From assembly GCA_000092065.1 (NCBI GenBank), contig CP000583.1: 64,000 nt of DNA. One strand, given 5' to 3'. The position numbers were made by a program, and so were the translations under genes. Each line of letters starts with the position of its first letter. Position 1 is the first letter of the stretch. Positions 13,779 through 46,825 of this stretch are shown piece by piece. Origin of the DNA: Ostreococcus lucimarinus. Taxonomy: Eukaryota. The notes under the pieces were generated by a model, which made no database searches, was not told the DNA's origin, and saw only the letters and a program-made list of their open reading frames with translations.

Positions 13779-13816
<38 letters not shown>

Positions 13817-14034: not shown

Positions 14035-14496
14035 ATGCGCGCCGACGCGCGCGCGCTCGGCGGCGACGACGACGCGCGCGACGTCGCGCGCGACGTCGAC
14101 GACGGCGACGCGACGCGCGCGATGGCCGACGCCGACGCCGACGCCGACGACGCGCGCGAGGACGCGACGACGACGACGACGACGACGCCGCCGACGAACG
14201 AACGACGCGACGCGCGCGAGCGCGCCGGCGACGTCGCGCGCGCGTCGCTCGCGATCGCGCTGCTCGCGGTCGCCCTCGCGAGGCTGCGACGGTGGGCGAG
14301 GGGCGACGGCGACGCGCGCGGCGGCGCGCCGGGACGCGTCAGCAGGCGCTTCGCCGCGCGGCACAGGAAGTGTAATCGATGCGGCGCGCGCGGGTCGGCG
14401 GTCAAGGTGAAGTGCGAGCGGTGTAAAAGGTGCTGGTACTGCTCGCAGACGTGCAAGAAAGCGGCGTGGGCGCTGGAAATTTGCGAGTGTTGTTGA
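14035..14496 (+). CDS. Small MYND-type zinc-finger protein (about 153 aa), divergent from eIF5B
   Basis: The C-terminus CNRCGARGSAVKVKCERCKRCWYCSQTCKKAAWALEICEC fits the MYND Cys spacing, though the conserved His is not obvious. ATG at 14035. The upstream part of ORF 12421-14496 is antisense to eIF5B and low-complexity, so it is rejected. Confidence 0.4.
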   Translation: MRADARALGGDDDARDVARDVDDGDATRAMADADADADDAREDATTTTTTTPPTNERRDARERAGDVARASLAIALLAVALARLRRWARGDGDARGGAPGRVSRRFAARHRKCNRCGARGSAVKVKCERCKRCWYCSQTCKKAAWALEICECC

Positions 14497-22289: not shown

Positions 22290-22859
22290 CCCATCGCGCG
22301 CGCGTTCCGTCGTTCCGACCCGCGCGCGCCGCGCGCCGCGCGCGTCGACCGCTCGCGCGGGTCGAAATTCTCCAATTTCAACCTCCGACCGATTCCCCGC
22401 GGTGTTCCGCGCGTCGCCGTCGCGCGCCCGACCGTCGCGCGCCCCCTCGCCCGCGCGCGATCGCCCGCGCGCGATCGCCCGCGCGCGTCCGCCCGCGCGC
22501 GCGGCGCGTCTCGCGCGCGCGCGACCGCGCGAGCGCTCGACGACGCGCATTTGACCTCGCGACCGCGGCGACCGCGCGCGCCGATGCGCCGCGCGCGCGC
22601 GCGCGAGATCGATGCGTCGCGCTCGCGCGCGCGAAGACGTCGGTCGTGATCCGTACCTCGCGTTGGATTCGCTCGCGGGGCGCGCGCGCGCGTCGAGGAG
22701 TGCGCATTGGGCGCGCATTCGATGCGGAGACGACGAGACGCCGCGAGGCGTCGCGCGAAGCGTCGCGCGAGGGCGAACGCGCGCGACGCGGCGACGACGA
22801 GAGGGAACGACGCGTCTGGACGACGCGGCGCTGATGATGATGCGTGACTAGTGAGAAAT

Positions 22860-30239: not shown

Positions 30240-33200
30240 TCAAAATCCTTTGGCGGCGCGAGAACGCGGGAGGATGTCGCCTCGACCGCGCTTGAGCCAT
30301 AGGTTGATGGAGGCGCGGTGCGCGCGCGTGACGTATTTCAAAACCTCGTCGATGAAGATGACGGGAATGGAGAACCAAAACACCGCGCGCCACTCTTCGT
30401 AGTTGAGCGCGGTGATGGTGAACGTCTTCGCGAAGGATGGGACGTACATGATGATGAAATGGAGCCACATGCTGATGACGATGGAGACGAGCAACCAGAC
30501 ATTCGTCGTCGGCGGGTGGGAGAATAACGATTTGTTCTCGCTCAGTGAGTTCAACGCGTTGAACATTTCGATCAATACTAGGGTCGACATCGCCATCGTG
30601 CTCGGTCGACGATCTTTGAAGGATTCACACGCGTCTCCGATGCATCGCGAGGCGCTCGTGAGCTCTGCCCACGTCATTTGCGGGCCGCCGGGGTACGACA
30701 TAAACCACCATCCGAACGACCCAACGGTCGCTATGCCGACGTAAACGCCGATAATGAGGTACCGAATCAGTAACCATCGATCAACGATCTGCTCACGCGG
30801 ACTCCGAGGTCGTTGACGCATGATGTCACCATCCGCGCGGTTGAAACCAAGCGCGGTGGCGGGTAATCCGTCGGTGACGAGATTAACCCACAAAAGTTGC
30901 ACCGGAACGAGCGTCTCCGGGAACCCAAGGGCGGCGGCGATAAAAATACACACCACTTCGCCGATATTTGAGCTCACCATGTAGCGAATAAATTGCTTCG
31001 TATTGTTGTAGATTGCGCGACCCTCCGCGACGGCTTCGACGATGGTGCTAAAGTTATCGTCTGCGAGCACCATATCGGCGGCGCCTTTGGCAACCGCGGT
31101 ACCGCTTCCCATGGCAATCCCGATGTCCGCGCATTTGAGTGCCGGAGCATCATTCACACCATCGCCCGTCATCGCGACGATGTTGTCCTGCCGCTTCAAA
31201 ATCTCGACGAGCTTGCTCTTTTGCGCGGGCTCGACGCGAGAAAAGACGCACATCGTCCGCGCCGCTTCTTCGCGCTGCTCGATCGTCATCGCCTCAAACT
31301 CCACACCGGTGAAAGATTTTCCCTTGAAACTATTTTGAGTTGAACCACCCGTCAAAGGATCGATCGAGTTGCTCAAGCCAATCTGCGATGCGATGGCTTC
31401 TGCGGTTTGTTGGTTGTCGCCGGTGACCATGATGACGCGAATACCCGCGTCTTTGCACGTTTGTAACGAATAACGCACCTCCGGGCGCGGTGGATCAATC
31501 ATTCCAACAAGACCAATGAATGTGAGATTGTTTTCGTCCGTCTCAGAGCACGTCGTTACGCCTCGACCCATGGGGCGCATCGCGAGCGCCAACACGCGTA
31601 GGGCGTCATTGGCGTAGCCTCGCATTTGCTCCGCCACTTGTTCGCGAACTTGATCCGTCATTCTTTCCGCTCGGCCGTTGCGATTAGACATAACCGACGT
31701 GCAAAGTGACAGAACACTCTCCGGTGCACCTTTGACGAATAGAATGGATTCATCATTTCGAGAGCATAGCGTTGACATGCGCTTGCGTTCGCTCGTAAAC
31801 TCCGCCGTCGCGAGCTTTGTAAATTCCGAATCCCAATATTGTGTGCTATGCATGTCCTGGTCGCTCTGAGCTCGCCCGAGTATTCCGGAATCCGAAGGTA
31901 GTCCAATCTTTTCCGTGAGCACGCGAAGAGCAATCTCTGTCGCTTCTCCAATCTTCTCAAAAGATCCCTTTTCCTTGTCGAAATTCAGCGTGGAATCGTT
32001 GCACATCGAACAGCACATGGCAACATAAGCCACCGCCGCGGCGTCGGCTGGTTCGTGCACGACCAAGCCGCGAGAGTCTAAAATTTCCCCATTCTGTGCG
32101 TAAGCCTCGCCGCGAATACCGTAGTTGGTAACTTCTGCGGTGCTCGAATTTTCGATGACGCACATGCGCATCACAGTCATGACGTTGCACGTCAGCGTAC
32201 CCGTTTTATCGCTACAAATAACCGAAGTGCACCCCAAGGTCTCCACGCTAGGAAGCGTTCGCACGAGAGCGTTCTTTTTCGCCATGCGACGCGTGCCGAG
32301 GGCGAGACACGTGGTGACGACGGCGGGTAAGCCTTCGGGAATCGCGGCCACGGCAAGCGCGACGGCAATCTTAAAGTAATAAACCGCACCTCGCAGCAAT
32401 CCTCCGTGCGCCTTGTCGGCAAAGTGTCCAATGTTCACCACCCACACTAAAATACAAATTACCGCGATGATTTTCCCGAGCAAGTTCCCGAATTCGTCCA
32501 ATTTCTTCTTCAGCGGCGTCAATTCCTCCTCCGTCTGCTCGAGCGTGTGTTGAATCTTCCCCATGGCTGTGTTACTACCCGTACCGACCACCACGCACGT
32601 AGCCTTACCCACGGTCACCGTGGTCCCACTGTACACCATGCACGTCTTGTCTTGCAGCACGCACTCGCCGAGATGTTCCACCGCCCGTTCCGTCTTCGCC
32701 ACGCTTCCGCTCTCCCCCGTCAACAGCGCCTGATCGCACCGCAGGACGTTGGAGTGAATCTTAACCAATCGGCAATCCGCGGGCACCTTTTCTCCCGTCG
32801 CAATCTCCACGATGTCTCCGGGCACGAGCGCCTCCGCGTTCACCTTGCGTTTCTCGCCGTCGCGCGTGCACGTGGCGACGTCCGCCTCGTACTTTTTCAA
32901 TTCCTCAATCGCGCGCTCCGCGTTCTTCTCCGTCGCCACTCCCACCGCGGCGTTCGCGATTAATATCGCCACGATCACTCCCGGTTCCAGGAACGCCTCC
33001 GAGCCACCCTCACCGTCCCACAGCGCGAGCGCCAACGACACGAACGCCGCGAGCAACAGCACCTTCACCATCGTGTCGTCGAATTGCTTAATCACCAACG
33101 ACGCGAACGACGTCTCCCGCTGCGCCGGCAGCGCGTTCGCCCCGCACGCATCTCTCCGTCGCTGCACGTCCGCGCGATCGAGCCCGTGCGCGAGATCGAG

Positions 33201-33317
33201 GACGCCCAACCGCGCCAAGGTTTCAGTCGCGCTCAATCGATGCGCGTCTTCCGCGTGTCTTCGCCACGCCGTCGCCGCCGCCGCGCTCTCGGGATTGACA
33301 TCGCGCGCGTGAGGCAT
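30240..33317 (-). CDS. SERCA-type P-type Ca2+-ATPase (type IIA)
   Basis: Motifs ICSDKTGTLT, KGAPE and TGDGVNDAPALK and 10 TM segments are present. The sequence aligns over its full length with SERCA. ATG at 33317. Confidence 0.9.
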   Translation of the reverse strand: MPHARDVNPESAAAATAWRRHAEDAHRLSATETLARLGVLDLAHGLDRADVQRRRDACGANALPAQRETSFASLVIKQFDDTMVKVLLLAAFVSLALALWDGEGGSEAFLEPGVIVAILIANAAVGVATEKNAERAIEELKKYEADVATCTRDGEKRKVNAEALVPGDIVEIATGEKVPADCRLVKIHSNVLRCDQALLTGESGSVAKTERAVEHLGECVLQDKTCMVYSGTTVTVGKATCVVVGTGSNTAMGKIQHTLEQTEEELTPLKKKLDEFGNLLGKIIAVICILVWVVNIGHFADKAHGGLLRGAVYYFKIAVALAVAAIPEGLPAVVTTCLALGTRRMAKKNALVRTLPSVETLGCTSVICSDKTGTLTCNVMTVMRMCVIENSSTAEVTNYGIRGEAYAQNGEILDSRGLVVHEPADAAAVAYVAMCCSMCNDSTLNFDKEKGSFEKIGEATEIALRVLTEKIGLPSDSGILGRAQSDQDMHSTQYWDSEFTKLATAEFTSERKRMSTLCSRNDESILFVKGAPESVLSLCTSVMSNRNGRAERMTDQVREQVAEQMRGYANDALRVLALAMRPMGRGVTTCSETDENNLTFIGLVGMIDPPRPEVRYSLQTCKDAGIRVIMVTGDNQQTAEAIASQIGLSNSIDPLTGGSTQNSFKGKSFTGVEFEAMTIEQREEAARTMCVFSRVEPAQKSKLVEILKRQDNIVAMTGDGVNDAPALKCADIGIAMGSGTAVAKGAADMVLADDNFSTIVEAVAEGRAIYNNTKQFIRYMVSSNIGEVVCIFIAAALGFPETLVPVQLLWVNLVTDGLPATALGFNRADGDIMRQRPRSPREQIVDRWLLIRYLIIGVYVGIATVGSFGWWFMSYPGGPQMTWAELTSASRCIGDACESFKDRRPSTMAMSTLVLIEMFNALNSLSENKSLFSHPPTTNVWLLVSIVISMWLHFIIMYVPSFAKTFTITALNYEEWRAVFWFSIPVIFIDEVLKYVTRAHRASINLWLKRGRGDILPRSRAAKGF

Positions 33318-33459
33318 GCTTTCGCGACGCGCGGTCGGCGCGACGCGCGCTCGAGCGACGCGCGCGCGTCGTCGTTCGCGGATAAGCGTCGCCGGGTGTC
33401 CCGTCCAGCCGAACGTTCGGGACGCCCGACCGCAGTGTTCGCCGCGCGCGACGACCGCG

Positions 33460-34047
33460 ATGCCGTCCTCGACGTCCCGCGCGCTCGTCGCGGCGTCCGG
33501 AATCGTTCTGGCGATCGTCGCGAGCGATATCTACGGCGCGTACGCGTCCACGGCGACGGAGACGGCGCCGTCCGAGACGTTTCGCGCGATGTCCCGAGGC
33601 GCCGGGAAAGTCGTCGTCGGGTTTTGCACCTCGTGATCTTACCGCGGCGGGTTCAACCAGCTCGCGCGCGCGATCGAAAATGAATTCGGGATGGCCACGA
33701 CCGGTGGGCACTGGCCGCCGAGCGCGACGGCGGTGGCGCTCGGTCGAGCGTTCTCGTGGGTGCAAATCGCGCTCTGGACGGCTACGTTTTTCGGCGAGCG
33801 GGCGGCGACGCGCGTCTTCGGCGAGAGCGCGGTCGTCCCGGCGTGGTTGAAGTCGATGAGCGAGAATAAGTTTCAAACCGCCATCATGACTTTTTGGGTG
33901 TTCAACATCGTGAGCGCGAACGTGTTGAACACCGGGGCGTTTGAGGTGTTTTACGACGGCGAGCTCGTGTCTTCAAAGTTGCAGAGCGGGAAATTGCCGA
34001 GGGTCGATACGATATTCGAAGGGATTCGCGCGATTCAGGGGAAGTAG
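33460..34047 (+). CDS. Selenoprotein T (SelT, Rdx family) with in-frame Sec-UGA at 33634-33636
   Basis: A signal peptide MPSSTSRALVAASGIVLAIVASDIYGAYA is present. The motif …VVVGFCTS-U-SYRGG… places UGA inside the CxxU redox motif. The downstream ORF is in the same frame and aligns to the SelT C-terminal domain (…NTGAFEVFYDGELVSSKLQSGKLPRVDTIFEGI…). The ORF track splits the gene at the UGA. Confidence 0.8.
33634..33636 (+). other. UGA selenocysteine codon of SelT
   Basis: An in-frame TGA separates two same-frame ORFs at the CTSU motif. Confidence 0.75.
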
Positions 34048-34251
34048 TGTCATCGCATGGAACGATGAGATGCGATGCTCGTCGTGGTTAGCGATGCGAT
34101 GGGCGCGCGGGATGAAACGAACGGTGACGACGCGCGCGGAAAACTCGGTCGAAGAAATCGGCCAGTCGCGCGCGTTTGACTTCTTCGGTTCGTCCACGCG
34201 CTTCGCTCGTCGTCGTCGTCTGGAAGATGAATCAATATATCATCATCATGT

Positions 34252-34310
34252 AATAAAAACTAACGTAGTTCTCTCGCGCGAATAAAACTAACGTAGTTCT
34301 CTCGTGCGAG
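34252..34310. repeat. Tandem duplication of about 29 bp (AATAAAA(A)CTAACGTAGTTCTCTCG[C/T]GCGA) in a convergent 3' UTR region
   Basis: Read directly from the sequence between the SelT stop (34047) and the LHC stop (34431). It contains AATAAA-like motifs. Confidence 0.7.
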
Positions 34311-34430
34311 TCGAAGACCGACCGCGGGGCGATGATGGGCGACGTCGACGGCGCTCGCGCGGCGCGTTCGTCGCTCAAATTTTATATAACGACCTTGCCG
34401 TCGAAAATTACAACGCTAAACCGTAAGTGA

Positions 34431-35401
34431 TTACCACGGGATCGGACGGAACTCCTCGTCGCTGCCGTCACCGAGCGTCTTTTGCGCGAGCAAGAACGTC
34501 GGGGCGGTGGACAAGAAGGCGATGAAGGCGACGGCTTCGCCGCCGACGGAGCTCGTGAACAAGTTGACGGCTTGCGGGTTGGCCATGTGCGCCTCCAAGC
34601 CCTCCAACGGGGAGAGACCGGTGACGGCGTATTGGGAAACCATACCGAGGAACGCAACCATCGCGAGGCGCGCGTTCTTCACTTCCTTCACGCGCTTGTC
34701 CGGAGCATCGAGTCCAGCCGGGTCGAACGGGAACGCGTTCAACACGCCGGATTCGCCCGACTTCATGAAACCGCGCGTGCGCGCCGCCTCGAGAATGCTC
34801 ATCGCCACGACTTGGAACCCGACGAGCTGTTGGAAGTCCATACCGTAATCCACGGCACCGGCTTCCCACCACTTCGGCAAACCAACCGCGTCGGTGAACA
34901 AAATACCCGCCGTCGCCGCCATGGCCCAGCGCCCGTTCATGAGCTCCGCCTCTTGCAAGTACGGCAGCGTCTCCGGGTTCGCCCCGAGTCGCAACGGGTC
35001 AAAGCCTGCGCGCGCACCGCATCCGTCAGTCACACATCCACGCGCGCCTCCATTCGTCCCGCGTCCCGCCCTCTTCCGCTCGCGTAGGCGCGTCTCCCCG
35101 CGCCGCCGCCCCGCGCGTCCGCCGCCTTCGAATCGCCATCCCAGCCGTATCCGACCGTATCGTATCTCCCATCGCCCGCCATCGCGCGCGTCCTCGCGCG
35201 TCGCTCGCGTCGCGCACCGTAATCGCCGGCCATCGTCCCATCGAGATATTTCGGCGCCACCGCTCCCGGGTACCACAGCTCGCGGTCCGCGTTCGCCGCG
35301 CGCGCGGCGACGCGCGCGCGCGGCGCGCGCGTCGTCGATCGCGCGTCGACGATCGTCGCGCGGTTCGCGATGGCGTGTCGAGCCGTCGTGAGGGAGAACA
35401 T
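34431..35401 (-). CDS. Light-harvesting complex protein (FCP/LHC family); exons 35218-35401 and 34431-35005
   Basis: Exon 1 is MFSL…ELWYPGAVAPKYLDGTMAGDYG. Donor GTGCGC (phase 1), intron 35006-35217 and acceptor gcgcAG follow. Exon 2 is FDPLRLGANPETLPYLQEAELMNGRWAMAATAGILFTD…KNARLAMVAFLG… (helices 1 and 3 with conserved E/R). There is an extra C-terminal hydrophobic segment GEAVAFIAFLSTAPTFLLAQ. Confidence 0.8.
35006..35217 (-). other. Intron (GTGCGC donor), phase 1
   Basis: Splicing creates the canonical GDYGFDPLRLG junction. Confidence 0.6.
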
Positions 35402-35712
35402 CGCGTTCGTCGGGTGTTCGCGCGCGAGAATTTACGCGTTCACGGGTCCGTCGTCGTCGACGGGTGCGCGCGGCTCGTGCGAGGCGCGGGCGTGTGAAGA
35501 CGCGCGCGCGTCCGCGCGCGGCGCGCGCCAATCCGCGCGCGCGATCCGTCGCGATGGATGGGCCGCGTTCGCGTTTGATCGCCTTCGCGCGCGCTCGAAT
35601 ACGGGGGATTCGAATACGCGCGCGGCTGAGTGTCCGTGTGTGAGACGCACCACGATTGAGACGCCGCGCGGCATCGCGACCGCGGACCGCGACGCCGTCG
35701 CGGCGCGGCGCG

Positions 35713-37257
35713 ATGCCGCGCGCGCGCGACGCGCGCGCGCGCGTACGAGCGCTCTTTCTCGCGTGCGTCGTTCTCGCGACGCGCGGCGCGCGCGCGAGCG
35801 ACGCGAAAGCCGACGCGCGAGGACGAGCGCTCGCGCTCGAGCGCTGGGCGCGGACGCCGACGCGACGCTGGGACGCGGCGGCGCGAGAGGAAGACGCGAC
35901 GACGGCCGCGCGCGTGTCGGAATCGATTCGAATCGTCGCGGAGGCGCGAGGCGCGGGTCGAGGCGTGGCGACGACGAGGAACGTGAGCGCGGGGGAGCTC
36001 CTGGCGGAGGTGCCGCTGGAGAAGTGCCTGTGCGCGGCGAGCGCGAGGATGGACGCGCGGCTGTGGCGCGCGATCGGGGCGAGCGGGGCGAGCGGGGACG
36101 CGATATTGGCGGCGCACGTGCTGCGGGAGGCGTTCGATGCGGGATCGAAGAGCGCGTATTGGCCGTGGTTGCGGTTGCTGCCGAGAGACGTGGACAGCAC
36201 GGTGGGGTGGAACGAGGACGAGTTGAGCGAGCTGAGCGGATCGAACGTCGTGGTGTTCACGCGAGCGATCAAGGCGCAGTGGAGGATGGAATACGACGCG
36301 CTCGACGTGCCGACGCTTGGGGAAAAATTTCCAGACGTCTTCGGGGGCGAGCGCGCGGCGCATTACACGTTTGACAAGTTTACGTGGGCGCGGTTTATTA
36401 TTTGGTCGCGCGCGATCGATTTATCCACCGAAAGCGCCGAGGCGCCGACGATTCGCGTGCTGGTACCGTTGTTGGACATGGCGAACCACGCGCCAGGGGG
36501 TAAGTTGCGCCCGGAGTGGGACGCGCGCTCGAACGCGGTCAAGGTGTACGCGGCGAGCGCGTTTCGGGAGCACACGGAATTAAGGTTCAACTACGACACC
36601 AAGCCGTCGCAGTACTTTTTGTTACAATACGGTTTCATTCCGGAAACGAATCCCGCCGAGTGCGTCGAGGCGACGGTGCGCGTGAGCGATCACGACTCCC
36701 TTCGAGACGCCAAAGAGGAGCTCTTACGTCTGCACGGTCTCGATCCGAAGAAGAGAAACTTCGAATGGAAACCGCGAAGTATTGATTACGACTTGCTCGC
36801 GGCGACGCGAGTCATAACTATGGACGAGGCAGAAATGAGCGACGCGACGTCGTTGACGCTCGCCGTCAGTGGCGCCTCGGTGAGCGCCAAGAACGACGCG
36901 CGCACGAAAGCCGTACTCCTCAAATCTTTGGCGAGCTTTTTAGAGTCGTATACGACGACTCTCGCGGAAGACAACGAATACGTCGCACGTGTCGATGACG
37001 AATCGAACGATGAGCCGCTTCCAGGAAAGCGAAAGCGCTTCGCCGTGTTGCTGCGCATGCGCGAAAAGCAAATCTTGCTCGCATCCGCGGACGCCTTGTT
37101 CAAGGAATTACCAGACGAAGATCAAGAGCTCGTGAAGTCGACGTGCGAAGAGATCTTCATGAATGAATTCGACGCGTGCATGACGCGCGCGAACGGGACG
37201 GTGTTCGCGTCGTACGAGAAAAAAACCGAGGAGGAGAGGGTGGATGAATCATCGTAA
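35713..37257 (+). CDS. SET-domain protein-lysine methyltransferase (Rubisco LSMT/SETD3-like) with signal-peptide-like N-terminus
   Basis: The SET domain (…RGVATTRNVSAGELLAEVPLEKC…LVPLLDMANH…ELRFNYD…) and a Rubisco-LSMT substrate-binding-like C-terminal region are present. ATG at 35713. Confidence 0.7.
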   Translation: MPRARDARARVRALFLACVVLATRGARASDAKADARGRALALERWARTPTRRWDAAAREEDATTAARVSESIRIVAEARGAGRGVATTRNVSAGELLAEVPLEKCLCAASARMDARLWRAIGASGASGDAILAAHVLREAFDAGSKSAYWPWLRLLPRDVDSTVGWNEDELSELSGSNVVVFTRAIKAQWRMEYDALDVPTLGEKFPDVFGGERAAHYTFDKFTWARFIIWSRAIDLSTESAEAPTIRVLVPLLDMANHAPGGKLRPEWDARSNAVKVYAASAFREHTELRFNYDTKPSQYFLLQYGFIPETNPAECVEATVRVSDHDSLRDAKEELLRLHGLDPKKRNFEWKPRSIDYDLLAATRVITMDEAEMSDATSLTLAVSGASVSAKNDARTKAVLLKSLASFLESYTTTLAEDNEYVARVDDESNDEPLPGKRKRFAVLLRMREKQILLASADALFKELPDEDQELVKSTCEEIFMNEFDACMTRANGTVFASYEKKTEEERVDESS

Positions 37258-37330
37258 ATCGGTATTATGTATCAACACAACATTAACTAGGTGTAGTCAA
37301 AGTAGCTTGTAGCGCAGCGCGTCAAATTAT

Positions 37331-38569
37331 TTAGTAAGGACGGTGTCTGTTATCGCGACCTCGGCCATTGCGTCGGTTGTCTCGTCCACGGCCGCCGCCG
37401 CCGCCGATGGCGTAGGCAACTTGGCCGGTGGGAAGGATGACTGGCGTTGCGTTCACTTGTCTGGCGCCAGACCAAGAGCCGCGCGGGGCGAGACCGCCGC
37501 CGTACTTGGAGTCGCCACTTCTGTATTTAGACCAATCGTCCCGACCACCGCCGCGAGAAGGACCGCCGCGGCCCGAGTTTGGCTCTCGACCTCGATTGCC
37601 GGCGTCCGAGCGGTACGATTTGCGCGACGACATCACCTTGATGGTGGAGCCGTCGACGCTGGAGATGAAGGCACCACCCTTGTCACCTTCGGCCGCGCCT
37701 TCAACCGGTTCGCACTCCGCGAGAGCTTTTTCGACGCTCTCGGCGGAATCGTAAAACACCCAGCCTCTCGTGCGATCTTTTTCCATAATCTGCGTGCCGA
37801 GAATTGTACCGTAACGCTCGAAAGCCTCGCGCAAGCCCTGATCTGTGGCGTTCGCTTCGTTCATCTCGGTGACGTGCAACGTCTTGATTTCGATTTCTTT
37901 CTTCTGCGGTCTTGGTCCGACAAATTCGCACACAAGACCTCTCTTGTCCTTGTCGTCCGCCACGGGCAACTTTTCTTCGCGGTTCGCCGCCATGTTCTTC
38001 ATAAAGCGTTCCGCGCACGCCTCGTTGTAAAACGAAGCCCAACCCCGGCCGCCGTTGTGATCTCCACTTTCAACGACCGCGTTCTCGGCGTTCTTCTTCG
38101 CCGATCGCGGTCGCGAGAGCGCGAAAAACTCCAAACCCGCGCCTCGCGAGCGCAACGCCTCCACGATCTCCTCTCGCGTCGCGTCCTTTCGCAGCCCGGT
38201 CACCATCACCCGATACTTGCTCGGTTTCACGCTCGCCGTAATCTTCATCTTCTTCACCTCGCACTCCGCCTTCGCGATCGCCGCCACCGCGTTCGCCGCG
38301 CTCTCCCTCGAGTCGTACCTCGCGAACGCGTACCCGCGATGCGTCCCCGTCGTCCTATCCGTCACCAATTCGAACCCCGTCGCCCCGCTCTCCGCCCCGC
38401 ACTCCCGCAGCGCCGCGTGCACGTCCTTCTCGCTCGCCTCCGCCGCGATTCCCTTCACGAACACCTCCGTCTCCCGTCCCGGTTTCCCCGCGATCAGCGC
38501 ATCCGTCGCGTCCGATTCCAGAAGCACGCTTCGGCGCTCGTCGAAGTCGTACGCGTCGTCCTCGTCCAT
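37331..38569 (-). CDS. RNA-binding protein with multiple RRM domains and C-terminal RGG/GAR region (nucleolin-like)
   Basis: RRM-like blocks (…ETEVFVKGIAAEASEKDVHAAL…, …YRVMVTGLRKDATREEIVEAL…, …KTLHVTEMNEANATDQGLREAFERYGTILG…RGWVFYDSAESVEKAL) are present. The tail is GGGRDDW…GGGGRGRDNRRNGRGRDN. Start at MDEDDAYDF (ATG 38569). Confidence 0.65.
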   Translation of the reverse strand: MDEDDAYDFDERRSVLLESDATDALIAGKPGRETEVFVKGIAAEASEKDVHAALRECGAESGATGFELVTDRTTGTHRGYAFARYDSRESAANAVAAIAKAECEVKKMKITASVKPSKYRVMVTGLRKDATREEIVEALRSRGAGLEFFALSRPRSAKKNAENAVVESGDHNGGRGWASFYNEACAERFMKNMAANREEKLPVADDKDKRGLVCEFVGPRPQKKEIEIKTLHVTEMNEANATDQGLREAFERYGTILGTQIMEKDRTRGWVFYDSAESVEKALAECEPVEGAAEGDKGGAFISSVDGSTIKVMSSRKSYRSDAGNRGREPNSGRGGPSRGGGRDDWSKYRSGDSKYGGGLAPRGSWSGARQVNATPVILPTGQVAYAIGGGGGRGRDNRRNGRGRDNRHRPY

Positions 38570-38733
38570 CGCCGCCGTCGCCGTTTCGCCTCGCGCGTCG
38601 CGAGTCTCAGTCGTCGTCGCGTCGCGCGCGCGCGTGTGCCGACGCGATCGCGCGCGCGATTCGCGATCGCGCGTCGTCAATCGTTTTCGCGGGAACGGCG
38701 CGCGCTACAAAAAGCGACTCGACGACGCGCGCG

Positions 38734-40116
38734 ATGTCGCGCGCGGACGCTCGAAACGCGTACGACGCCATCCTCGACGCGCGCACGCGCGACGCGGCGT
38801 CGATGGAGCGGTTCGCCGCGCTCGCGACGGCGCCGAGCGCGGTGCCGCGCGCCGCCGTCGAAGCGGTCGTCGACGCGGGCGCGCGCGCGGCGCTCGTCGA
38901 CGTGCGCTCGCCGGGAGAGCACGCGCGAGGACGCGCGCCGCGCGCGATAAACGCGCCGCTGTTCGATGACGACGAACGCGCGGCGGTGGGGACGGCGTAC
39001 AAGACGAGAGGACGAGGCGAGGCGCTGGTGCTGGGGATGGCGGCGGCGGCGCCGCGGTTGGAGGCGATCGTGGAGCGCGCGAAGCGAGCGGTGGAGACGG
39101 TGGCGACGACGCGAGGGAACGGTGACGGCGAAGACGATGGTGAGATTGATGTGTACGTGATGTGCTTTCGAGGAGGGATGCGGAGCTCGTGCGTGGGGTG
39201 GTTGTTGAAGGAACGGTTGCGCGGCGCGAGAGTCCACGTGGTCGAGGGCGGATACAAGGCGTTTCGGAGGTGGGCGCTCGAGCGGTGCGGACCGACGCGC
39301 GGATTGCCCGCGCCGAGGGTGTGCGTCGTCGGTGGACGCACGGGGGTGGGGAAGACGCGCGCGCTGTTGGCGCTGCGCGCGAAAGGGGAACAGATTATCG
39401 ATTTAGAGGGGTTGGCGAACCACGCCGGGAGCGCGTTCGGGTGGGTCGGGCGAGAGCCGCAGCCGACTTCGGAGCACTACTCTAATTTAGTCGCCTGCGA
39501 GTGGCACGCGTTGGATGCGAGCAGATGGGTGTTCATCGAGGATGAGGGACCGCACGTCGGGCGGTGCTCGGTGGATCCGTTGTTGTTTGAGCGCATGCGA
39601 AACGCTCCTCTGGTGCTTCGCATGGTCGCCCCGCGCGAGGTGCGGTTGCACACTTTAGTGGAAGATTACGCGACGTCAGAGTTGCGTTCTCATCCGGAAT
39701 GGATGCCCACAATGCGTGAAAGCGTCGATAAGCTCGTCAAGCGGCTCGGTGGCGACCGCGTGCGCGACATTCGAGAAAAGCTCGAAGCCGGCGATTTCAC
39801 CGCCGTCGCCGAAGGTTTGCTCGAGTATTACGACGGTTTGTACGACAAGCACCTCATGAGCAAGCGCAAAGACCGTCGCGCGGCGCGGGCCGCCAACGCC
39901 AACGCCGCCAACGCCAACGCCAACGACGACGCGTGTTCGGTGCAATCCTTCACGTCGTCCACCACCGAAGACGAGGCCCGAGCCGGCGTCGTCGTCGACG
40001 TCAACTGCGTCGCCAACGCCTCGGGTGGCCTCGACGAGGACCTTCTCGTCCGCGATGTTCTGTGCGCCGTCGCTCTGTTCGAATGCGAAGGACCGAACGA
40101 CCCCGAACGCGCGTAG
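38734..40116 (+). CDS. selU: tRNA 2-selenouridine synthase (SelU/MnmH/YbbB-type: rhodanese domain plus P-loop)
   Basis: The protein aligns along its whole length with E. coli SelU. Matches include VDVRSPGEH…AINAPLFDDDERAAVGTAYK, rhodanese Cys MCFRGGMRS, GGYKAFRRWA, P-loop VVGGRTGVGKT, DLEGLANHAGSAFG and LLEYYDGLYDKHL. ATG at 38734. Confidence 0.85.
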   Translation: MSRADARNAYDAILDARTRDAASMERFAALATAPSAVPRAAVEAVVDAGARAALVDVRSPGEHARGRAPRAINAPLFDDDERAAVGTAYKTRGRGEALVLGMAAAAPRLEAIVERAKRAVETVATTRGNGDGEDDGEIDVYVMCFRGGMRSSCVGWLLKERLRGARVHVVEGGYKAFRRWALERCGPTRGLPAPRVCVVGGRTGVGKTRALLALRAKGEQIIDLEGLANHAGSAFGWVGREPQPTSEHYSNLVACEWHALDASRWVFIEDEGPHVGRCSVDPLLFERMRNAPLVLRMVAPREVRLHTLVEDYATSELRSHPEWMPTMRESVDKLVKRLGGDRVRDIREKLEAGDFTAVAEGLLEYYDGLYDKHLMSKRKDRRAARAANANAANANANDDACSVQSFTSSTTEDEARAGVVVDVNCVANASGGLDEDLLVRDVLCAVALFECEGPNDPERA

Positions 40117-40270
40117 TCGATTCGATTCGCGTCTCGTCTCGAGCGCCGACTCGAGGCTGACTCAGCACGGTCGTGCCGACACGCTTTGCAATAATCCACG
40201 CGCGAGTTCGTCACAAACGCGCGCGTCTCACGCACGTTCGAACGCGCGAACGCTCAAATCCACGAAAAAG

Positions 40271-40696
40271 ATGTTCTCTCTGTCCTCTACCGCCGCTCTC
40301 GCCCGCGCGCGCGTCTCGGCGCCGCGTAAAACCGCGCGAAAGTTGACGATTCGCGCCTCCGTCAACTACATTCTCGATCGCGAGGGATGTTCGAGCGCGC
40401 GGTCCGACGACGACGGCGCGCTGCTCCAGACGGCGGCGAAGACGTGCCTGGCGGTTCCGATCGACGTGAACGCGCTCGTGGCGCAAAATAAGGGTGACTT
40501 GGAGTTTGAGAACGAGCAGTTGAAGTTTGAGCTCGACGACTCGAGCGCGCTCGTCGTGCAATCGCTCAAAGGCAAAACTCTGATCGACGGGAAAGCGGCG
40601 CCCAAGGGACGAAAATTGAAACTTCGCGCGGGATCGAAGATTAAGATCGCCGACGAGGAATTCACGGTGTATCGAAACACGCACGCGCACGCGTGA
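40271..40696 (+). CDS. Small FHA-domain-like protein with presequence
   Basis: A 141-aa ORF starts MFSLSSTAALARARVSAPRK… It ends with FHA-like strands (…LKGKTLIDGKAAPKGRKLKLRAGSKIKIADEEFTVYR). Confidence 0.4.
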   Translation: MFSLSSTAALARARVSAPRKTARKLTIRASVNYILDREGCSSARSDDDGALLQTAAKTCLAVPIDVNALVAQNKGDLEFENEQLKFELDDSSALVVQSLKGKTLIDGKAAPKGRKLKLRAGSKIKIADEEFTVYRNTHAHA

Positions 40697-40996
40697 GACG
40701 CGAGTCGCCGAACGCGAGTCGCCGAACGCGAATCGAATCAAGACCACACTCTTTGACTCCGCACCTTTTATCGTTGTACCATCGCTGTATAGCTACTAAC
40801 TCTGTTGTAAAACACGAGCGGACCTTACTCGATCACTCAAGTGCTCCACCGCGGATCCGGGGCGTGTGCGGCCGTCGGCGAATGGCGAAAGAATATAAAT
40901 GAATACGTATTAAAATCGATTCGAGTCAATTCATTAATAGGCCAGTTCGGGCTGGTCCACGTACTAATCAAATAATAAGATTTTTACAAGGGGCGT

Positions 40997-42814
40997 TCAG
41001 ACGCGCAGGACTTTGACGACGCCGTTTGAGTTCGCGGCGACGAGCACGGATTCATCGCTTCGCCACGCGCACGCGCTGATGAAACCGCGAGGTTCGTTCG
41101 CGTCCCGAGCGAACCCGATGGACGCGATGGGCGACGAAAGATCCTTGCGGTAAATGAATACCTCGTTCGTTTCGCTCCCGCACGCGACGTGGTCGCCGAC
41201 GGCGGTGAGGCCGACAAAGTTTCGTTCGTTGACGTGTCCTTTGAGCGCGCACGTGAGTTCGCCTGTGTTGACGTTCCACACGTTGATGGTGTTATCCGTC
41301 GATGCGCTCGCGATTTCGTTGGCGTTGAGGTACTTGACGTAACTGACCGCCTTGCGATGGCTGTCGAGGATTTGCACCGGCTCGGCCAAGCGTCGCAAAT
41401 CAAAAATATACACCTTTTGGTCGACGCAACCGACCGCGATGCAATGCGCGTTCTCGGGTGAATACTGCGCACAGCAGACGTTCGCTTTCATGTCGATCTC
41501 GTGCACGCTGTTCGGTTGATCGGTGTTCCAAATCTTCACCAAGTAATCATCCGAGCCACTCACTAAAAGTCGCGGATCCGTGCGACAGTAGTCAACGGTC
41601 CAGATTCGCTTTTCATGCTCCTCAAAATCTATGATGCTGCACTTTTTCTCGACATCCCACACCGAAACGACACCTTCGTAATCACTCGCCGCTATGTGAT
41701 GCTTAACAAACTTGTTGTAAGACAAGCACGTCAGCTTGGACCGAGTGTTGATTTCATCCGCGGGTTGCTGTGACCCCTCGAGCACGTGCTCGAGGTTGTA
41801 AAACTGAATTCGTTTGGACACACCTGCGGTAGCGAAGTACTCTTGCGTCGAATCGAACTCAATGCTGCTGACGGGCGCGCCTGGGTTTGACGCGTCTTCT
41901 TCGCCGCGAATCTCCGCCGCGATGGAAATGTTCGAGTATCGTTTAAACGTGTCAATAATCGTCGAAAACTCCTCCATAGTCGTCGAGTCCGGGGCGTACC
42001 CTCGACCACCATTGAGCGCGCTACCACTCGACTTACCACCATCGCTGGTGACATCGTCTCGTTCTGCGCTTCTTCTCTTGGAATACCAGCTCTGCAATTC
42101 GCTAAACTGCCTCAACACTCTGCGTCGCTTCGACTCGTCGATGACGATTTGCGACTCACCCGGCCGCGTCAAACCCAGCGCTTCCATCGCGTGCGCGATC
42201 ACTTCTTTATCGTGCAAATCACTACGTTCGTGCGACACTCGTGCACCGCCACCCAAGGCCTCAATTTCCCTTCGCACCGCGTCGATGTCGGCGTCTAAAC
42301 ACCTCAACTCTCGCTCGAGCGCCACCGCGCTCGCCTGCTTCCTCGCTCGGCTCTCTACTAAGAACTCCTTCAACACCTCTCGCGACACTGCGCGTGATTC
42401 CAGCACCAAACTTCGATGTTTCTCGCTCAAAGTCTTCACCAAAGGTGTCAATCGTTCCAAATCGTCTTCGCCGTCCTCGGCGCTCGTCGAAGCCGCCGCC
42501 GCTTCGCTCGCCCCTGACTTCATAGCCGCAACCATCGCGTTCACCGCCGCATTTGGCACTAACTGTGCGCTGGTAAACATCGACGAGCATGTCGGGCACC
42601 GAGCGCTCACCCCGGCGTCCGCGCCGCCGTCTCGGGGCGCCGCCGCCGCCGCGTCGAGCGCCGCGCTCGCGCACCCGTGACAAAACGTGTGTCCGCACGT
42701 CGCCACGCAGTGCGCGTCCGTGAACGGTTCGAGACATATCGGACACGTAACGTGTGCGAGCATTGCTGACGTCGCGCGCGCGTGCGCGCCTCGCGGTAGC
42801 GTTAACGCCGACAT
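40997..42814 (-). CDS. COP1/RFWD2-like E3 ubiquitin ligase (RING, coiled coil, WD40)
   Basis: RING CPICLEPFTDAHCVATCGHTFCHGCA…CPTC is present. A coiled-coil region and C-terminal WD40 repeats (…LVSGSDDYLVKIWN…) follow. ATG at 42814. Confidence 0.8.
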   Translation of the reverse strand: MSALTLPRGAHARATSAMLAHVTCPICLEPFTDAHCVATCGHTFCHGCASAALDAAAAAPRDGGADAGVSARCPTCSSMFTSAQLVPNAAVNAMVAAMKSGASEAAAASTSAEDGEDDLERLTPLVKTLSEKHRSLVLESRAVSREVLKEFLVESRARKQASAVALERELRCLDADIDAVRREIEALGGGARVSHERSDLHDKEVIAHAMEALGLTRPGESQIVIDESKRRRVLRQFSELQSWYSKRRSAERDDVTSDGGKSSGSALNGGRGYAPDSTTMEEFSTIIDTFKRYSNISIAAEIRGEEDASNPGAPVSSIEFDSTQEYFATAGVSKRIQFYNLEHVLEGSQQPADEINTRSKLTCLSYNKFVKHHIAASDYEGVVSVWDVEKKCSIIDFEEHEKRIWTVDYCRTDPRLLVSGSDDYLVKIWNTDQPNSVHEIDMKANVCCAQYSPENAHCIAVGCVDQKVYIFDLRRLAEPVQILDSHRKAVSYVKYLNANEIASASTDNTINVWNVNTGELTCALKGHVNERNFVGLTAVGDHVACGSETNEVFIYRKDLSSPIASIGFARDANEPRGFISACAWRSDESVLVAANSNGVVKVLRV

Positions 42815-43110
42815 GCGCTCACGCTGACGTCACACGAATCACGTCAGAGATATCCGACGTGCGCGTCGCGTTCTAGCGTCTGTGAAGCGTGTGCGCGCGC
42901 TCGAAGCGGCGCACGTTCGTGTTTGGACGCACTCAAACGCGCTCGAGCGTCGCGTTCGAGGCGCGCGGCGAGGTTTGAGGCTGTGCTCACACTCGCCGCC
43001 GTCGCGACGCTTTTTCGTCGACGCGACGCGGTTGTGACTAGGCTACGCTCGCTACATCATACGCTATTGGTGCTAGGACACACTACGATGCGCGCGGTAA
43101 ACGGAATATA

Positions 43111-44247
43111 TCAACGAGGAATCTTCCTGCACTCGACCAATCGATCGCGGATGTCGTCCCAAAATGCTGCCTCCTCGGCGTCTGCGTCTGCGTCGACGCC
43201 GCGCTCGCGAATAAGCTCGAACCTACTGTCACGACGGTAAGCGACGGATGCGAACGTGATCGTTCGCGTTCGCACCTTCGTGCCTTCGCTTCTGTGGATG
43301 CTCTCCACGATGTCTGGGCGTACCCAATCCGCACCGAGACGCAGGACACCCTTGAATCGCGCGACGTCGACGCGTCGCAACACAAACTCTTCAAAAAACG
43401 CCTTCAACTTCGGTCGCACGAAGACGTCGTCGACGTGAAACGCGTATCCACACGAGGCGTATCGATCACTTTCCTGCTTCACCATCCAAGGCGGCGCGTT
43501 GGCGGTGAGGCGCGGCTCCAAAGTGAACGGTCTCGAGCTCGTCGTCGTCGTCGTCGTCGTCGTCGCCTCGGTCGGGAGCTCGCTCGGCTCCCACCCGCAT
43601 CGACCATCGAGAAGCGCCAAATCCATCCCATTCGCGCGATCACGCGCCAAAAACACAGCACTCTTCTTCGGCCAAAACCCACGCCCGAACGCCAAGAACG
43701 CCTCCACCTCTGCCTCGCTCGCGGCGTCCGCGAACGACCCGCACATCGCGTCTGCGCACTCCGTCTGCGCCTTGAACAATTCCGACCGCAACACCGCCGC
43801 TTTCCCTTCGTCTTCCCCGAAAACCCGCACATCGACCACACAAATCGTCGCTCGCACGTCCACGCTCGCTTCCAGGTGTTCCGATCGCAGCGCGTCGATC
43901 ACGCGTCCCGCGTCGCCCATCCCGCTCGGCTCCACGAGCACGCGCGCCGGTCGATACCGCCGCAGCACCTGCGTCACCGCCACCACGAACGGCGCCGCCG
44001 TCGCGCAGCACGCGCACCCTCCCGACACCTCTCGAACGATCGTCCTCCCACTCGCGTCCGCGTCGCGCTCGCGCGTTCCCACCGCGTCATCGAGCAGCGC
44101 CCCGTCGATGCCCAGCGCACCGAAATCGTTCACCACCACCGCCCACGTCTCGTTCGCCGGCTTCGCGCTCGCCAGCGCGCGCAGAACGTGCGTCGTCTTC
44201 CCCGCGCCGAGCGCGCCGGTGATGACGTTCACCGGCGTGCGCGCCAT
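43111..44247 (-). CDS. CobW/COG0523-family GTPase (zinc metallochaperone-like)
   Basis: GALGAGKTT, VNDFG and SGGCACC (CxCC) motifs and a CobW_C-like C-terminus are present. There is an internal poly-Thr from (GTC)n. ATG at 44247. Confidence 0.75.
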   Translation of the reverse strand: MARTPVNVITGALGAGKTTHVLRALASAKPANETWAVVVNDFGALGIDGALLDDAVGTRERDADASGRTIVREVSGGCACCATAAPFVVAVTQVLRRYRPARVLVEPSGMGDAGRVIDALRSEHLEASVDVRATICVVDVRVFGEDEGKAAVLRSELFKAQTECADAMCGSFADAASEAEVEAFLAFGRGFWPKKSAVFLARDRANGMDLALLDGRCGWEPSELPTEATTTTTTTTSSRPFTLEPRLTANAPPWMVKQESDRYASCGYAFHVDDVFVRPKLKAFFEEFVLRRVDVARFKGVLRLGADWVRPDIVESIHRSEGTKVRTRTITFASVAYRRDSRFELIRERGVDADADAEEAAFWDDIRDRLVECRKIPR

Positions 44248-44297
44248 GCGTCGTCGAGTGTCACCGCGCGCGCCTCGCTCGGCACGCCTCGGCGCGC

Positions 44298-45221
44298 ATG
44301 CGCGTCGCCGCCGCCGCGGCCGCGGACGCGCGCGCCGCGTGCGTCTCCACGATGTGCCCGCGGATCGACGACGCGCTGCGCGGGGGCGTGCGCGCGCGCC
44401 ACGTGACGGAGATCGCGGGCGAGAGCGCGAGCGCGAAGACGACGCTGTGCGCGCAGCTCGCGGTGCGCGCGACCGCGCGCGGCGGCGCGGCGGTGTACGT
44501 GCACACCGACGGGCCGGCGCCGACGGCGCTGATGCGACGGATCGCGTCGTCGGCGCGGTTCGTCGCGGAAGCGTGCGACGGGGACGAAGACGCGGCGACG
44601 GCGGCGCTGGAGCGCGTGTACGTGGTCAAGGCGCTGGGCGACGCGGACGCGCTGCGAGAGACGCTGACGGCGGTCAGCGCGGTCCTCAGAGCGCCGGTGA
44701 GCGAAGACGCGGTGGTGAGGATGATCGTGGTGGATTCGATCGCGGCGCCGTTTCGAGACGACGCGACGAACGGAGGATGGACGTACGCGGCGAAACGGGC
44801 GGGCGCGCTGCACAAGTTGACGATGCTGTTGAAGGAGTACGCGACGAAACACGACGTGGCGGTCGTCGTGACGAATCACGTGGTGGATAGCGTGAGAGAA
44901 AATGGAACCGGAGCGCACGGTGACGGCGCCGTGGCGACGCGGGCGATGGGGGAGTTCACGACGAGCGGACGACGAGTGGTGCCGGCGCTCGGTTTGATGT
45001 GGTCGAATTGCGTCAACGCGCGATTGTTTCTCACGAGACGCGCGACGCGCGGTCAAGGGTACGTCGTGGGCGGTGATGACGGCGATGATGGAAACGCGGG
45101 CGTCGCGCGGACGTTACACGTCGTGTACGCGCCGCATTTGCCCGAGTCGAGCGTCGATTTCGTCGTGCGCGAAGACGGCGCGTGGGACGTCGCCGCGCCG
45201 CGCCCGCGCGCCGTGGCCTAG
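44298..45221 (+). CDS. RAD51 paralogue (XRCC3/RAD51C-like RecA-fold ATPase)
   Basis: Walker A GESASAKTT and Walker B MIVVDSIAAPFR are present in a RecA-like core. ATG at 44298, 50 bp from the divergent CobW start. Confidence 0.65.
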   Translation: MRVAAAAAADARAACVSTMCPRIDDALRGGVRARHVTEIAGESASAKTTLCAQLAVRATARGGAAVYVHTDGPAPTALMRRIASSARFVAEACDGDEDAATAALERVYVVKALGDADALRETLTAVSAVLRAPVSEDAVVRMIVVDSIAAPFRDDATNGGWTYAAKRAGALHKLTMLLKEYATKHDVAVVVTNHVVDSVRENGTGAHGDGAVATRAMGEFTTSGRRVVPALGLMWSNCVNARLFLTRRATRGQGYVVGGDDGDDGNAGVARTLHVVYAPHLPESSVDFVVREDGAWDVAAPRPRAVA

Positions 45222-45265
45222 CGCACGCGTACCGCGCGCTACGCGCGGCGCGTGTACGATAGTAG

Positions 45266-45350
45266 TGAATGAATGAATGAATGTGTTAGCGAATGATTGT
45301 ATTTTTATCGTCGGATTGACGAACGAACGAACGAACGAACGACCGAACGC
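45266..45350. repeat. (GAAT)4 followed by (GAACGAAC)n simple repeats upstream of UBA3
   Basis: Read directly from the sequence. Confidence 0.7.
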
Positions 45351-45435
45351 GTTCGCGTCGGTTACGCCGCACTCTCACCCTCGACGTTCCAAAATTCCTC
45401 TCGACGCCCCCGCCGTCGAGCCTCCCGCCGAGGCG

Positions 45436-46825
45436 ATGTCTCGCCTCGACGTCGATTTCTGCGTCGACGAACGCGCGCGCTGGCGCTCCATCGACGCGCT
45501 TTTACTTCGCCGTGGGAGATTCACCGGTCCAGATTTTGAGCCGGGAGAAGACGTCGCGCGCGTGCTCCGCGAGCACGTCCGCGTGCTCGTCGTCGGCGCC
45601 GGAGGACTCGGGTGTGAACTGTTGAAAGGGCTCGGTGCGTGACGACGGCGCGAGAGACGCGCGGACGTTGGTGGTGATGAAGGACGCGCGACTGACGAGA
45701 CGAACGCGACGACGCCGCGCAGCGCTGAGCGGATTCACGACTCTGGACGTGATCGATATGGACACGATCGACGTGACGAATTTAAATAGACAGTTTTTGT
45801 TTCGCGCGGAGGACGTGGGGAAGAGTAAGGCGGAGACGGCGGCGAGACGAGTGCGGGAACGCGTGCGCGGGTGCGCGGTGAACGCGCATCACGGACGAAT
45901 AGAAGAGAAAGAGGATGGGTGGTATAAACAGTTTGATATCATCGCTCTGGGATTGGATTCTCTGGAAGCGCGGGCATACATCAACGCGGTGTGCTGTGGG
46001 TTCTTGGATTACGACGAGGATGGGAACGTGGATCCGGCGACGATTAAACCGCTCGTGGACGGCGGTACGGAGGGATTCAAGGGACACGCGCGCGTCATCG
46101 TTCCGGGAATGACACCGTGTTTCAATTGCACAATGTGGCTGTTCCCTCCGCAAACGACGTTTCCGTTGTGCACGCTGGCAGAGACGCCGAGGAACGCAGC
46201 GCACTGCATTGAATACGCAAAATTAATTCAGTGGCCGGCGGAGCGATACGGGGAGACGTTTGACGCGGATGTCGTCGAGCACATGACGTGGGTGTACACG
46301 AAAGCGCTCAAACGCGCCGAGACATTTGGTATTCCAGGCGTAACGTACGCTCACACGCAAGGTGTGACGAAGAACATCATTCCGGCGATTCCTAGCACGA
46401 ACGCAATCATAGCCGCGGCGTGCGTCATCGAAACGTTGAAAATGGCGACGATGTGCGCCAAGGGAATGAACAATTACATGATGTACGTGGGCACGGATGG
46501 TGTGTACTCGCACACTGTGGAGTACGAACGCGATCCATCGTGCGTGGTGTGCTCACCCGGGATCGCTCACGCGTTGAACGCGAACGCGACACTCGAAGAA
46601 TTCATGGCTTCCATCGTCGCCGCGTATCCAGATTCTCTCGCCGAACCGAGCGTGAGTTTCGGCGGGAAAAATCTGTACTTGCGCGGCGTGCTCGAGTCCG
46701 AATTCGCGGAAAACTTGAATAAACCTATGATTGAGCTCATGAATGGGCGCAAAGAAGGCTTAGTCGTGGTGAATGACAAGAAAATGAAGAAGACGTCGAT
46801 GCGGTTGCGACTGTCGTTAAAATGA
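45436..46825 (+). CDS. NEDD8-activating enzyme E1 catalytic subunit (UBA3); exons 45436-45634 and 45723-46825
   Basis: Exon 1 is …FTGPDFEPGEDVARVLREHVRVLVVGAGGLGCELLKGL. Donor g|GTGCGTGA and an 88-nt intron (acceptor gcgcAG) follow. Exon 2 is ALSGFTTLDVIDMDTIDVTNLNRQFLFR…PLVDGGTEGFKGHARVIVPGMTPCFNCT… The spliced junction LLKGLALSGF matches human UBA3 exactly. Confidence 0.85.
45635..45722 (+). other. Intron (GTGCGT donor, CAG acceptor), phase 1
   Basis: Splicing gives the conserved LLKGLALSGF junction. Confidence 0.7.

Follow-up and report, generated by a model that had tools for sequence, protein, structure and literature searches.

Surveys of selenium use have treated both 2-selenouridine and the enzyme that makes it as markers of prokaryotes (PMC1273633, PMC4561486, PMC11227280). 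In the bacterial form of that enzyme, tRNA 2-selenouridine synthase (MnmH, also called SelU or YbbB), selenation depends absolutely on Cys97, and geranyl transfer needs Lys155 in the Walker A motif (PMC4830565). Substitutions of A63, L66, G67, R79 and R129 lead to more geranylation (Jager et al., PMC4830565), and these sites lie in or near an insertion of about 36 amino acids (aa) that sets SelU apart from plain rhodaneses (PMC4830565). Yet tRNAs that contain selenium were described decades ago from Chlamydomonas, plants and mammalian cells, and an enzyme was never assigned to them (PMC7216251).

Here, we describe a SelU gene in a 64,000-nucleotide stretch of contig CP000583.1 of Ostreococcus lucimarinus; the whole stretch is called the window below. 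On every sequence criterion tested, the encoded protein is a genuine member of the SelU/MnmH family. We consider it likely that it is a functional, nuclear-encoded SelU/MnmH of an Ostreococcus-like alga, an old resident of the genome and most likely cytosolic, whose activity, selenium donor, substrate tRNAs and compartment we infer from what follows.

Family membership and functional residues

The gene and its parts, numbered on the window, are as follows.

38734..40116, plus strand: SelU/MnmH coding sequence, a single exon of 460 codons from ATG to TAG, taken from the list of open reading frames (ORFs) and scoring above the NCBIfam cut-offs
38734..38886, plus strand: N-terminal helical segment, aa 1-51 (helices 3-14, 21-31 and 42-51), AlphaFold2 predicted local distance difference test (pLDDT) score 89-97
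38881..39282, plus strand: rhodanese domain, aa 50-183, with the SelU-specific insertion (DERAAVGTAYKTRGRGEALVLGM...)
39163..39165, plus strand: TGC codon of Cys144, by pairwise mapping the equivalent of the catalytic Cys97 in MnmH of E. coli and Salmonella
39310..39912, plus strand: P-loop (AAA_SelU) domain, aa 193-393, the last part of which is a long helix bearing YYD
39331..39357, plus strand: Walker A motif GGRTGVGKT, aa 200-208, with Lys207 corresponding to E. coli K155
39916..39972, plus strand: low-complexity insert of about 20 aa, aa 395-413, predicted to be disordered (pLDDT <50)
39988..40086, plus strand: conserved C-terminal strand and helix, aa 419-451 (...LDEDLLVRDVLCAVALFE), pLDDT about 95

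The ORF is uninterrupted, and its ATG is the first start codon downstream of the preceding in-frame stop. It passed the curated cut-offs of both NCBIfam 'equivalog' models of tRNA 2-selenouridine(34) synthase MnmH, scoring 285 bits with NF008750 (cut-off 241) and 282.4 bits with TIGR03167 (cut-off 219.75). The match is one unbroken alignment over aa 50-393, nearly the full length of the profile. In a scan of the ORF with a Pfam copy that does not include AAA_SelU (PF26341), the sole match was Rhodanese (PF00581); AAA_SelU is a precomputed match of a 100%-identical protein (P0001) and of the same gene on six other contigs. The models of the split archaeal SelU gave weak scores, 52.7 bits against a cut-off of 200 for TIGR04568 and 25.1 bits against 180 for TIGR04569.

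An earlier note on this DNA, made from the sequence without database searches, had read the ORF as a bacterial-type SelU colinear with E. coli SelU/YbbB and had quoted three of its motifs. That identification stood throughout. The protein is colinear with E. coli K-12 SelU (b0503 of the annotated genome) over the whole length, and 37.7% of 337 aligned positions are identical. The motifs are at their expected places: MCFRGGMRS at aa 143-151, where the C-x-x-G loop holds Cys144; GGRTGVGKT in the P-loop; and YYD at aa 365-367. Moreover, all seven positions defined by mutagenesis of the E. coli enzyme are kept (C97, G67, A63, L66, R79, R129 and K155, corresponding to C144, G101, A97, L100, R118, R178 and K207), and the aligned eukaryotic and bacterial sequences show no variation at most of them. 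The insertion of about 33-36 aa in the rhodanese domain, which includes the equivalents of A63, L66 and G67, is present as well.

These residues bear on the possibility that the protein only S-geranylates tRNA, or takes part in a different sulfur transfer of the rhodanese type, and makes no selenouridine. The geranyltransferase activity of bacterial MnmH is separable and needs the Walker A lysine, not Cys97 (PMC4830565), and both residues are present here, as such a role would allow. However, Cys144, which would be needed only for selenation, was invariant in all eukaryotic and bacterial sequences of the alignments (A1, A2 and A3). The equivalents of E. coli G67, A63 and R129, the alteration of which raises geranylation (PMC4830565), were likewise invariant, and selenium use in the host lineage is unusually heavy (PMC2375036). 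We regard a selenium-independent role as unlikely.

The gene itself is not a discovery, because the automatic pipelines of JGI and NCBI already label such eukaryotic genes 'tRNA 2-selenouridine synthase' or 'selU'. The sequence is unsurprising, but it opens to experiment a long-dormant question, namely whether selenium-modified tRNA is made in eukaryotes, and by which enzyme.

Genomic residency and neighbouring genes

The surroundings of the gene are those of a green-lineage nuclear genome; a eukaryotic nuclear context had been proposed from the sequence.

30240-33317, minus strand: P-type cation ATPase
33316..34047, plus strand: SelT/Rdx-family selenoprotein gene, with an in-frame TGA (selenocysteine, Sec) at 33634-33636 and a PF10262 match of 47 bits when U is replaced by C
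between the SelT gene and the LSMT-like gene, minus strand: chlorophyll a/b-binding (LHC) protein gene
35656-37257, plus strand: Rubisco-LSMT-like SET protein
37331..38569, minus strand: RRM-domain protein (Pfam RRM_1, E = 1e-16), first ATG at 38569
38570..38733, no strand: RRM/SelU intergenic spacer, 164 bp between the divergent start codons, read from the sequence
40271-40696, plus strand: 141-aa ORF directly downstream of SelU, no Pfam match
40997-42814, minus strand: COP1 orthologue
43111-44247, minus strand: CobW-family GTPase
44298-45221, plus strand: Rad51-like protein
from about 45277, plus strand: UBA3-like protein (ThiF and E2_bind), split by an intron

SelU is thus flanked by COP1, LHC, Rubisco-LSMT-like and Rad51-like genes and by an intron-containing UBA3-like gene. 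The intron of the latter (45636..45724) is 89 nt long with canonical ends (GTGCGT...CAG), splits the ThiF domain and lies 5.5 kb downstream of SelU. The COP1 neighbour has as its named relatives an entry from Ostreococcus, at 66% identity, and COP1 proteins of land plants, at 35-39%.

The arrangement is not peculiar to one assembly. An identical SelU, next to the same genes, was found on 21 independent contigs from marine metagenomes and the SRA, and through the adjoining COP1 gene the locus is tied to contigs that reach about 957 kb. In the genome of a congener with a 70%-identical SelU (L097), the order ATPase-SelT-LHC-LSMT-RRM-SelU-141aa-COP1-CobW-Rad51-UBA3 was identical to that at 30240..46825 of the window, and the RRM gene was found beside SelU also in L084-L089. 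In a more distant genus of Mamiellophyceae, whose SelU is 48% identical (L001), the order ATPase-SelT-LHC-LSMT-SelU was kept and the RRM gene was absent.

Codon usage and substitution patterns pointed in the same direction. The relative synonymous codon usage of SelU correlated with that of its pooled neighbours (r = 0.92) as highly as the neighbours correlated among themselves, and its GC content at third codon positions, 0.81, lies inside the local range of 0.64-0.87. The ratio of nonsynonymous to synonymous substitution rates (dN/dS) was 0.34 in comparison with an orthologue of 89% identity and 0.23 with the one of 70% identity. Clearly, SelU is a resident nuclear gene under purifying selection, conserved across Mamiellophyceae. 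The synteny, the independent contigs, the codon usage and the dN/dS values leave practically no room for a contaminant, a pseudogene or a recent transfer.

In a gene that is intronless and belongs to an overwhelmingly bacterial family, one might suspect bacterial contamination, a chimeric assembly or a horizontal transfer so recent that the gene had not become integrated in the biology of the host. Contamination had already been dismissed in the earlier note, and such an origin is exceedingly improbable: green-lineage genes, one of them with an intron, stand on both sides on one contig, the same arrangement recurs in many independent assemblies, including the longest contigs, codon usage is host-like, orthologues are syntenic in other genera, and no bacterial hit exceeded 42% identity. 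A decaying relic of an ancient transfer might also be supposed, but the ORF is intact, dN/dS is low, the catalytic residues are all kept within Mamiellophyceae at divergence down to 48% identity, and relatives occur in transcriptome-derived sets (MMETSP, and EukProt entries with transcript-assembly names). A pseudogene is very improbable.

From the presence of SelU next to a selenoprotein gene it had been concluded in the earlier note that the organism also makes 2-selenouridine or geranylated wobble uridine in its tRNA. The distance was given correctly, 4.7 kb (4686 bp from the end of SelT to the ATG of SelU), and the SelT gene shows the C-T-S-U motif around its TGA (...VGFCTS-U-SYRGG...). 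However, the proximity is part of a syntenic block and carries no functional weight, since the intervening genes are unrelated to selenium and the block is conserved across Mamiellophyceae. A scan of the window with Rfam at the gathering threshold gave no matches at all, and hence none to a selenocysteine insertion sequence (SECIS) element for SelT; the SECIS elements of Ostreococcus are described as atypical (PMC2375036). As for the divergent promoter of 165 bp that SelU was said to share with the RRM gene, the divergent layout was borne out with a spacer of 164 bp, and the spacer is presumed to be a shared promoter region.

Some further features of the window were noted. The 141-aa ORF, which occurs at the same position in all related contigs, has a transit-peptide-like N-terminus, rich in Ser, Thr, Arg and Ala and free of acidic residues. 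The LHC gene seemingly lacks its N-terminal exon in its long ORF, which suggests another intron. ARAGORN reported a 94-nt 'tRNA-???' at 3122..3215 on the minus strand with a four-base anticodon (aacg); this may be a tRNA with an intron, or else a false positive. Compositional outliers lie at 12001..16000 and 22001..24000: the part at 12-14 kb stands out by its skews (GC skew -0.23, AT skew -0.44), and those at 14-16 kb and 22-24 kb by a GC content above 70%, where the window as a whole averages near 60%.

Eukaryotic relatives, termini and compartment

The view that SelU is essentially a prokaryotic trait, expressed also in the earlier note, agrees with the literature (PMC4561486, PMC11227280) but not with the databases. 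SelU proteins were found in Micromonas pusilla CCMP1545 (XP_003054879, 'predicted protein'), in Bathycoccus prasinos (CAL6413667), and in Symbiodinium microadriaticum and its relatives (CAE7438999, named 'selU' at NCBI; P0260, from NCBI). Two choanoflagellates, Didymoeca costata and Choanoeca flexa, have homologues too (EukProt, P0186 and P0358), although these may come from bacterial contamination of the datasets. One MMETSP transcript and a 91-kb contig, on which SelU is accompanied by WW/IQ, Myb and EF-hand neighbours, are further relatives attributed to eukaryotes.

When 1.84 billion cluster representatives were searched exhaustively, proteins of 400-900 aa formed a layer between the Mamiellophyceae and the typical bacterial SelUs of 340-360 aa, and the attributable members of this layer were eukaryotic. 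A profile built from the relatives outside Mamiellophyceae matched mostly metagenomic variants of Mamiellophyceae and added only two EukProt entries. A scan of GTDB (one genome per species) yielded 600 pattern-matched candidates, of which 550 were bacterial relatives. The 80 best were a mix of Bacteroidota, Cyanobacteria, Chlamydiota and others, with 32-42% identity to the window SelU, and 34-42% for the closest hits.

Neighbour-joining (NJ) trees were computed from 220 sequences and 330 columns; 13 sequences were verified as eukaryotic, 70 were labelled bacterial and many were unlabelled. The smallest clade with all 13 verified eukaryotic SelUs was free of the 70 labelled bacterial members in 271 of the 300 bootstrap replicates. 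The exact clade of 59 sequences was recovered in only 9 of 200, a criterion that is too strict, as this clade includes unverified deep branches. The first labelled bacteria above the eukaryotic clade in the 271 replicates were cyanobacteria and/or chlamydiae (about 115), Bacteroidota alone (61) or a mixture of at least four groups (66), and in the first tree of the full data cyanobacteria and/or chlamydiae were the sister of the eukaryotic clade. In these trees the eukaryotic SelUs tend to form a clade of their own, and our reading is that SelU may have been acquired anciently and then inherited, or passed, among eukaryotes.

A giant virus as the vector between protists was also considered; the scan of viral contigs returned a single SelU homologue at 35% identity and gave no support to it. 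This sole relative in the viral collections (L098, positions 49..1032 of the IMG/VR contig IMGVR_UViG_2597490355_000012) may belong to a prophage or a mis-binned bacterial fragment. A 901-aa protein of the eukaryote-like group, from an SRA assembly (P0187), carries an AlkB-like 2-oxoglutarate-Fe(II) oxygenase at aa 263-453, between the rhodanese and the precomputed AAA_SelU region, and would fuse two nucleic-acid-modifying activities.

The protein differs at both termini from the sampled bacterial SelUs, which in an anchored alignment begin at about aa 35-38 of the window SelU. The N-terminal extension had been put at about 45 aa; the surplus over E. coli is smaller, about 34 aa (E. coli D22 corresponds to D56). 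According to the AlphaFold2 model, aa 1-51 form three helices that pack on the rhodanese domain. The segment includes an M-E-x-F motif at aa 24-27, and in the anchored alignment of choanoflagellate, Symbiodinium, Micromonas and bacterial sequences the eukaryotic SelUs share a helix bearing an (M/L)-E-x-F motif that precedes the bacterial starts. At the other end, the insert at aa 395-413, of which the earlier note made no mention, differs between orthologues, and bacterial SelUs lack it in the alignments. The strand and helix that follow are conserved among Mamiellophyceae and can also be recognised in the choanoflagellates, and their counterpart in E. coli and the sampled bacterial SelUs is a much shorter C-terminal tail. 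The insert and the terminal strand and helix together make up most of the extra C-terminal length in comparison with E. coli.

A targeting prediction for the N-terminal extension had been suggested. Organellar presequences contain few acidic residues, are rich in Ser, Thr, Arg and Ala, and are unstructured, and neither the composition nor the AlphaFold2 model of the SelU N-terminus showed these traits. Its first 30 aa contain five aspartate or glutamate residues, and those of seven orthologues from Mamiellophyceae contain 2-8, in contrast to none in the 141-aa neighbour ORF, which has the typical look of an algal transit peptide. This comparison of composition and structure is indicative only, and it spoke against targeting. 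An acidic, confidently folded N-terminus that is partly kept in plastid-less choanoflagellates does not resemble a transit peptide and weakly favours a cytosolic enzyme.

The same enzyme could nevertheless act in the plastid or the mitochondrion on organelle-encoded tRNAs, being imported by a non-canonical or internal signal. For a family of bacterial origin this would not be strange, and the position of cyanobacteria and/or chlamydiae as the nearest labelled bacteria in the largest share of replicates and as the sister in the first full tree is as expected for a plastid-related acquisition. The usual substrate of bacterial SelU, 5-(carboxymethyl)aminomethyl- or 5-methylaminomethyl-2-thiouridine ((c)mnm5s2U) at position 34, is in eukaryotes expected only in organelles, and an organellar enzyme would meet it on its natural tRNAs. 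Geranyl pyrophosphate, in green algae, is made mainly in the plastid, which would suit an organellar enzyme better. However, the sister-group signal is weak, the acidic residues and the well-packed predicted helices of aa 1-51 do not fit an import sequence, and part of the segment is kept in non-photosynthetic choanoflagellates. We regard an organellar site as possible, but the less likely choice, and prefer the cytosol.

Proposed function and comparison with known systems

If it works like the bacterial enzyme (PMC4830565, PMC12177912), the algal SelU would bind tRNA-Glu, tRNA-Lys and tRNA-Gln with a 5-substituted 2-thiouridine at wobble U34. Its P-loop domain, with Lys207 in the Walker A motif, would bind geranyl pyrophosphate, and the geranyl group would be transferred to the sulfur of 2-thiouridine. 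Cys144 of the rhodanese domain, together with selenophosphate, would then replace the S-geranyl group by selenium to give 2-selenouridine. In the cytosol, the substrate would be 5-methoxycarbonylmethyl-2-thiouridine (mcm5s2U), and the selenium donor would be a bacterial-type fusion of NADH dehydrogenase and SelD, such as that described in Ostreococcus (PMC2398784, PMC4561486), a genus with 26-29 selenoproteins (PMC2375036). That the alga makes 2-selenouridine or geranyl-thiouridine is, judging from the conservation, a reasonable inference.

Several points weigh against a functional cytosolic SelU, in addition to the organellar occurrence of (c)mnm5s2U and the plastid supply of geranyl pyrophosphate. 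The cytosolic assignment draws on composition and a predicted structure, which favour it weakly. The eukaryotic clade comes from NJ trees of 330 columns, with 80 pattern-selected bacterial loci and a bacterial sister group that alternates between replicates. The presence of SelD in this genome is assumed from literature at the level of the genus; no SelD was found among the window ORFs examined, in a scan of part of the window. In the literature, 2-selenouridine is still described as prokaryotic (PMC11227280), and our searches found no paper on eukaryotic SelU homologues and no biochemical or nucleoside data for any of them. No paper was found that joins selenouridine with Micromonas, Symbiodinium, Emiliania or choanoflagellates, and the few selenouridine papers that name Ostreococcus do not assign to it a selenouridine synthase.

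More tentatively, the window SelU may belong to an ancient eukaryotic branch, spread over prasinophytes, dinoflagellates, choanoflagellates and unlabelled marine protists, that is marked by the N-terminal helical module and converts cytosolic mcm5s2U to its 2-seleno counterpart, mcm5Se2U. If such a branch exists, it would be a second eukaryotic selenium-utilisation trait beside selenocysteine, and would provide the first genetic handle on the old, never explained reports of selenium in tRNA (cited in PMC7216251). In any case, a conserved and selected nuclear SelU in highly abundant marine picoeukaryotes makes the question of selenium in eukaryotic tRNA directly testable, as Ostreococcus and Micromonas are culturable and genetically tractable, and the expected product is detectable by liquid chromatography-mass spectrometry of nucleosides. 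The relatives in dinoflagellates and choanoflagellates widen the scope of that question.

If the algal SelU is active, the selenium demand of oceanic eukaryotes would include a tRNA component, and the supply of selenium could influence how these algae decode Glu, Lys and Gln codons. Enzymology would acquire a SelU variant from eukaryotes that bears additional structural elements; to our knowledge, no full-length SelU structure has been solved. Even an inactive SelU would still be an anciently acquired tRNA-modification gene of bacterial type.

Among the systems with which the window SelU can be compared, selenoprotein U, listed for Ostreococcus (PMC2375036) and also abbreviated 'SelU', shares only the name. 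It is an unrelated Sec-containing family, whereas the gene described here is without an in-frame TGA and belongs to a tRNA-modifying family; the shared name may have helped to hide eukaryotic selenouridine synthases in literature searches. The bipartite SelU of archaea (Methanococcales; TIGR04568 and TIGR04569) consists of homologous rhodanese and P-loop modules, to which the window protein gave weak matches only. In archaea, two separate genes encode the enzyme, that for the P-loop half being the upstream one (PMC4830565), while the window SelU is one fused polypeptide in the bacterial order.

The eukaryotic SelUs of the databases are of the same family, share the N-terminal helix motif and group with the window SelU in most NJ replicates, and those of Mamiellophyceae are syntenic with it. 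They differ from it in sequence, with 38-56% identity where measured, and in the variable inserts between the two domains, and some of them carry long N-terminal extensions or extra domains.

The closest described system is bacterial MnmH/SelU/YbbB. In both, the rhodanese domain carries the SelU-specific insertion and precedes a P-loop domain, and the catalytic cysteine, the Walker A lysine and the residues that control geranylation are kept. In contrast to the bacterial enzymes, the window SelU is nuclear, its extra N-terminal residues are predicted to form helices that it shares with its eukaryotic homologues, and it has a low-complexity insert, predicted to be disordered, and a longer terminal helix.

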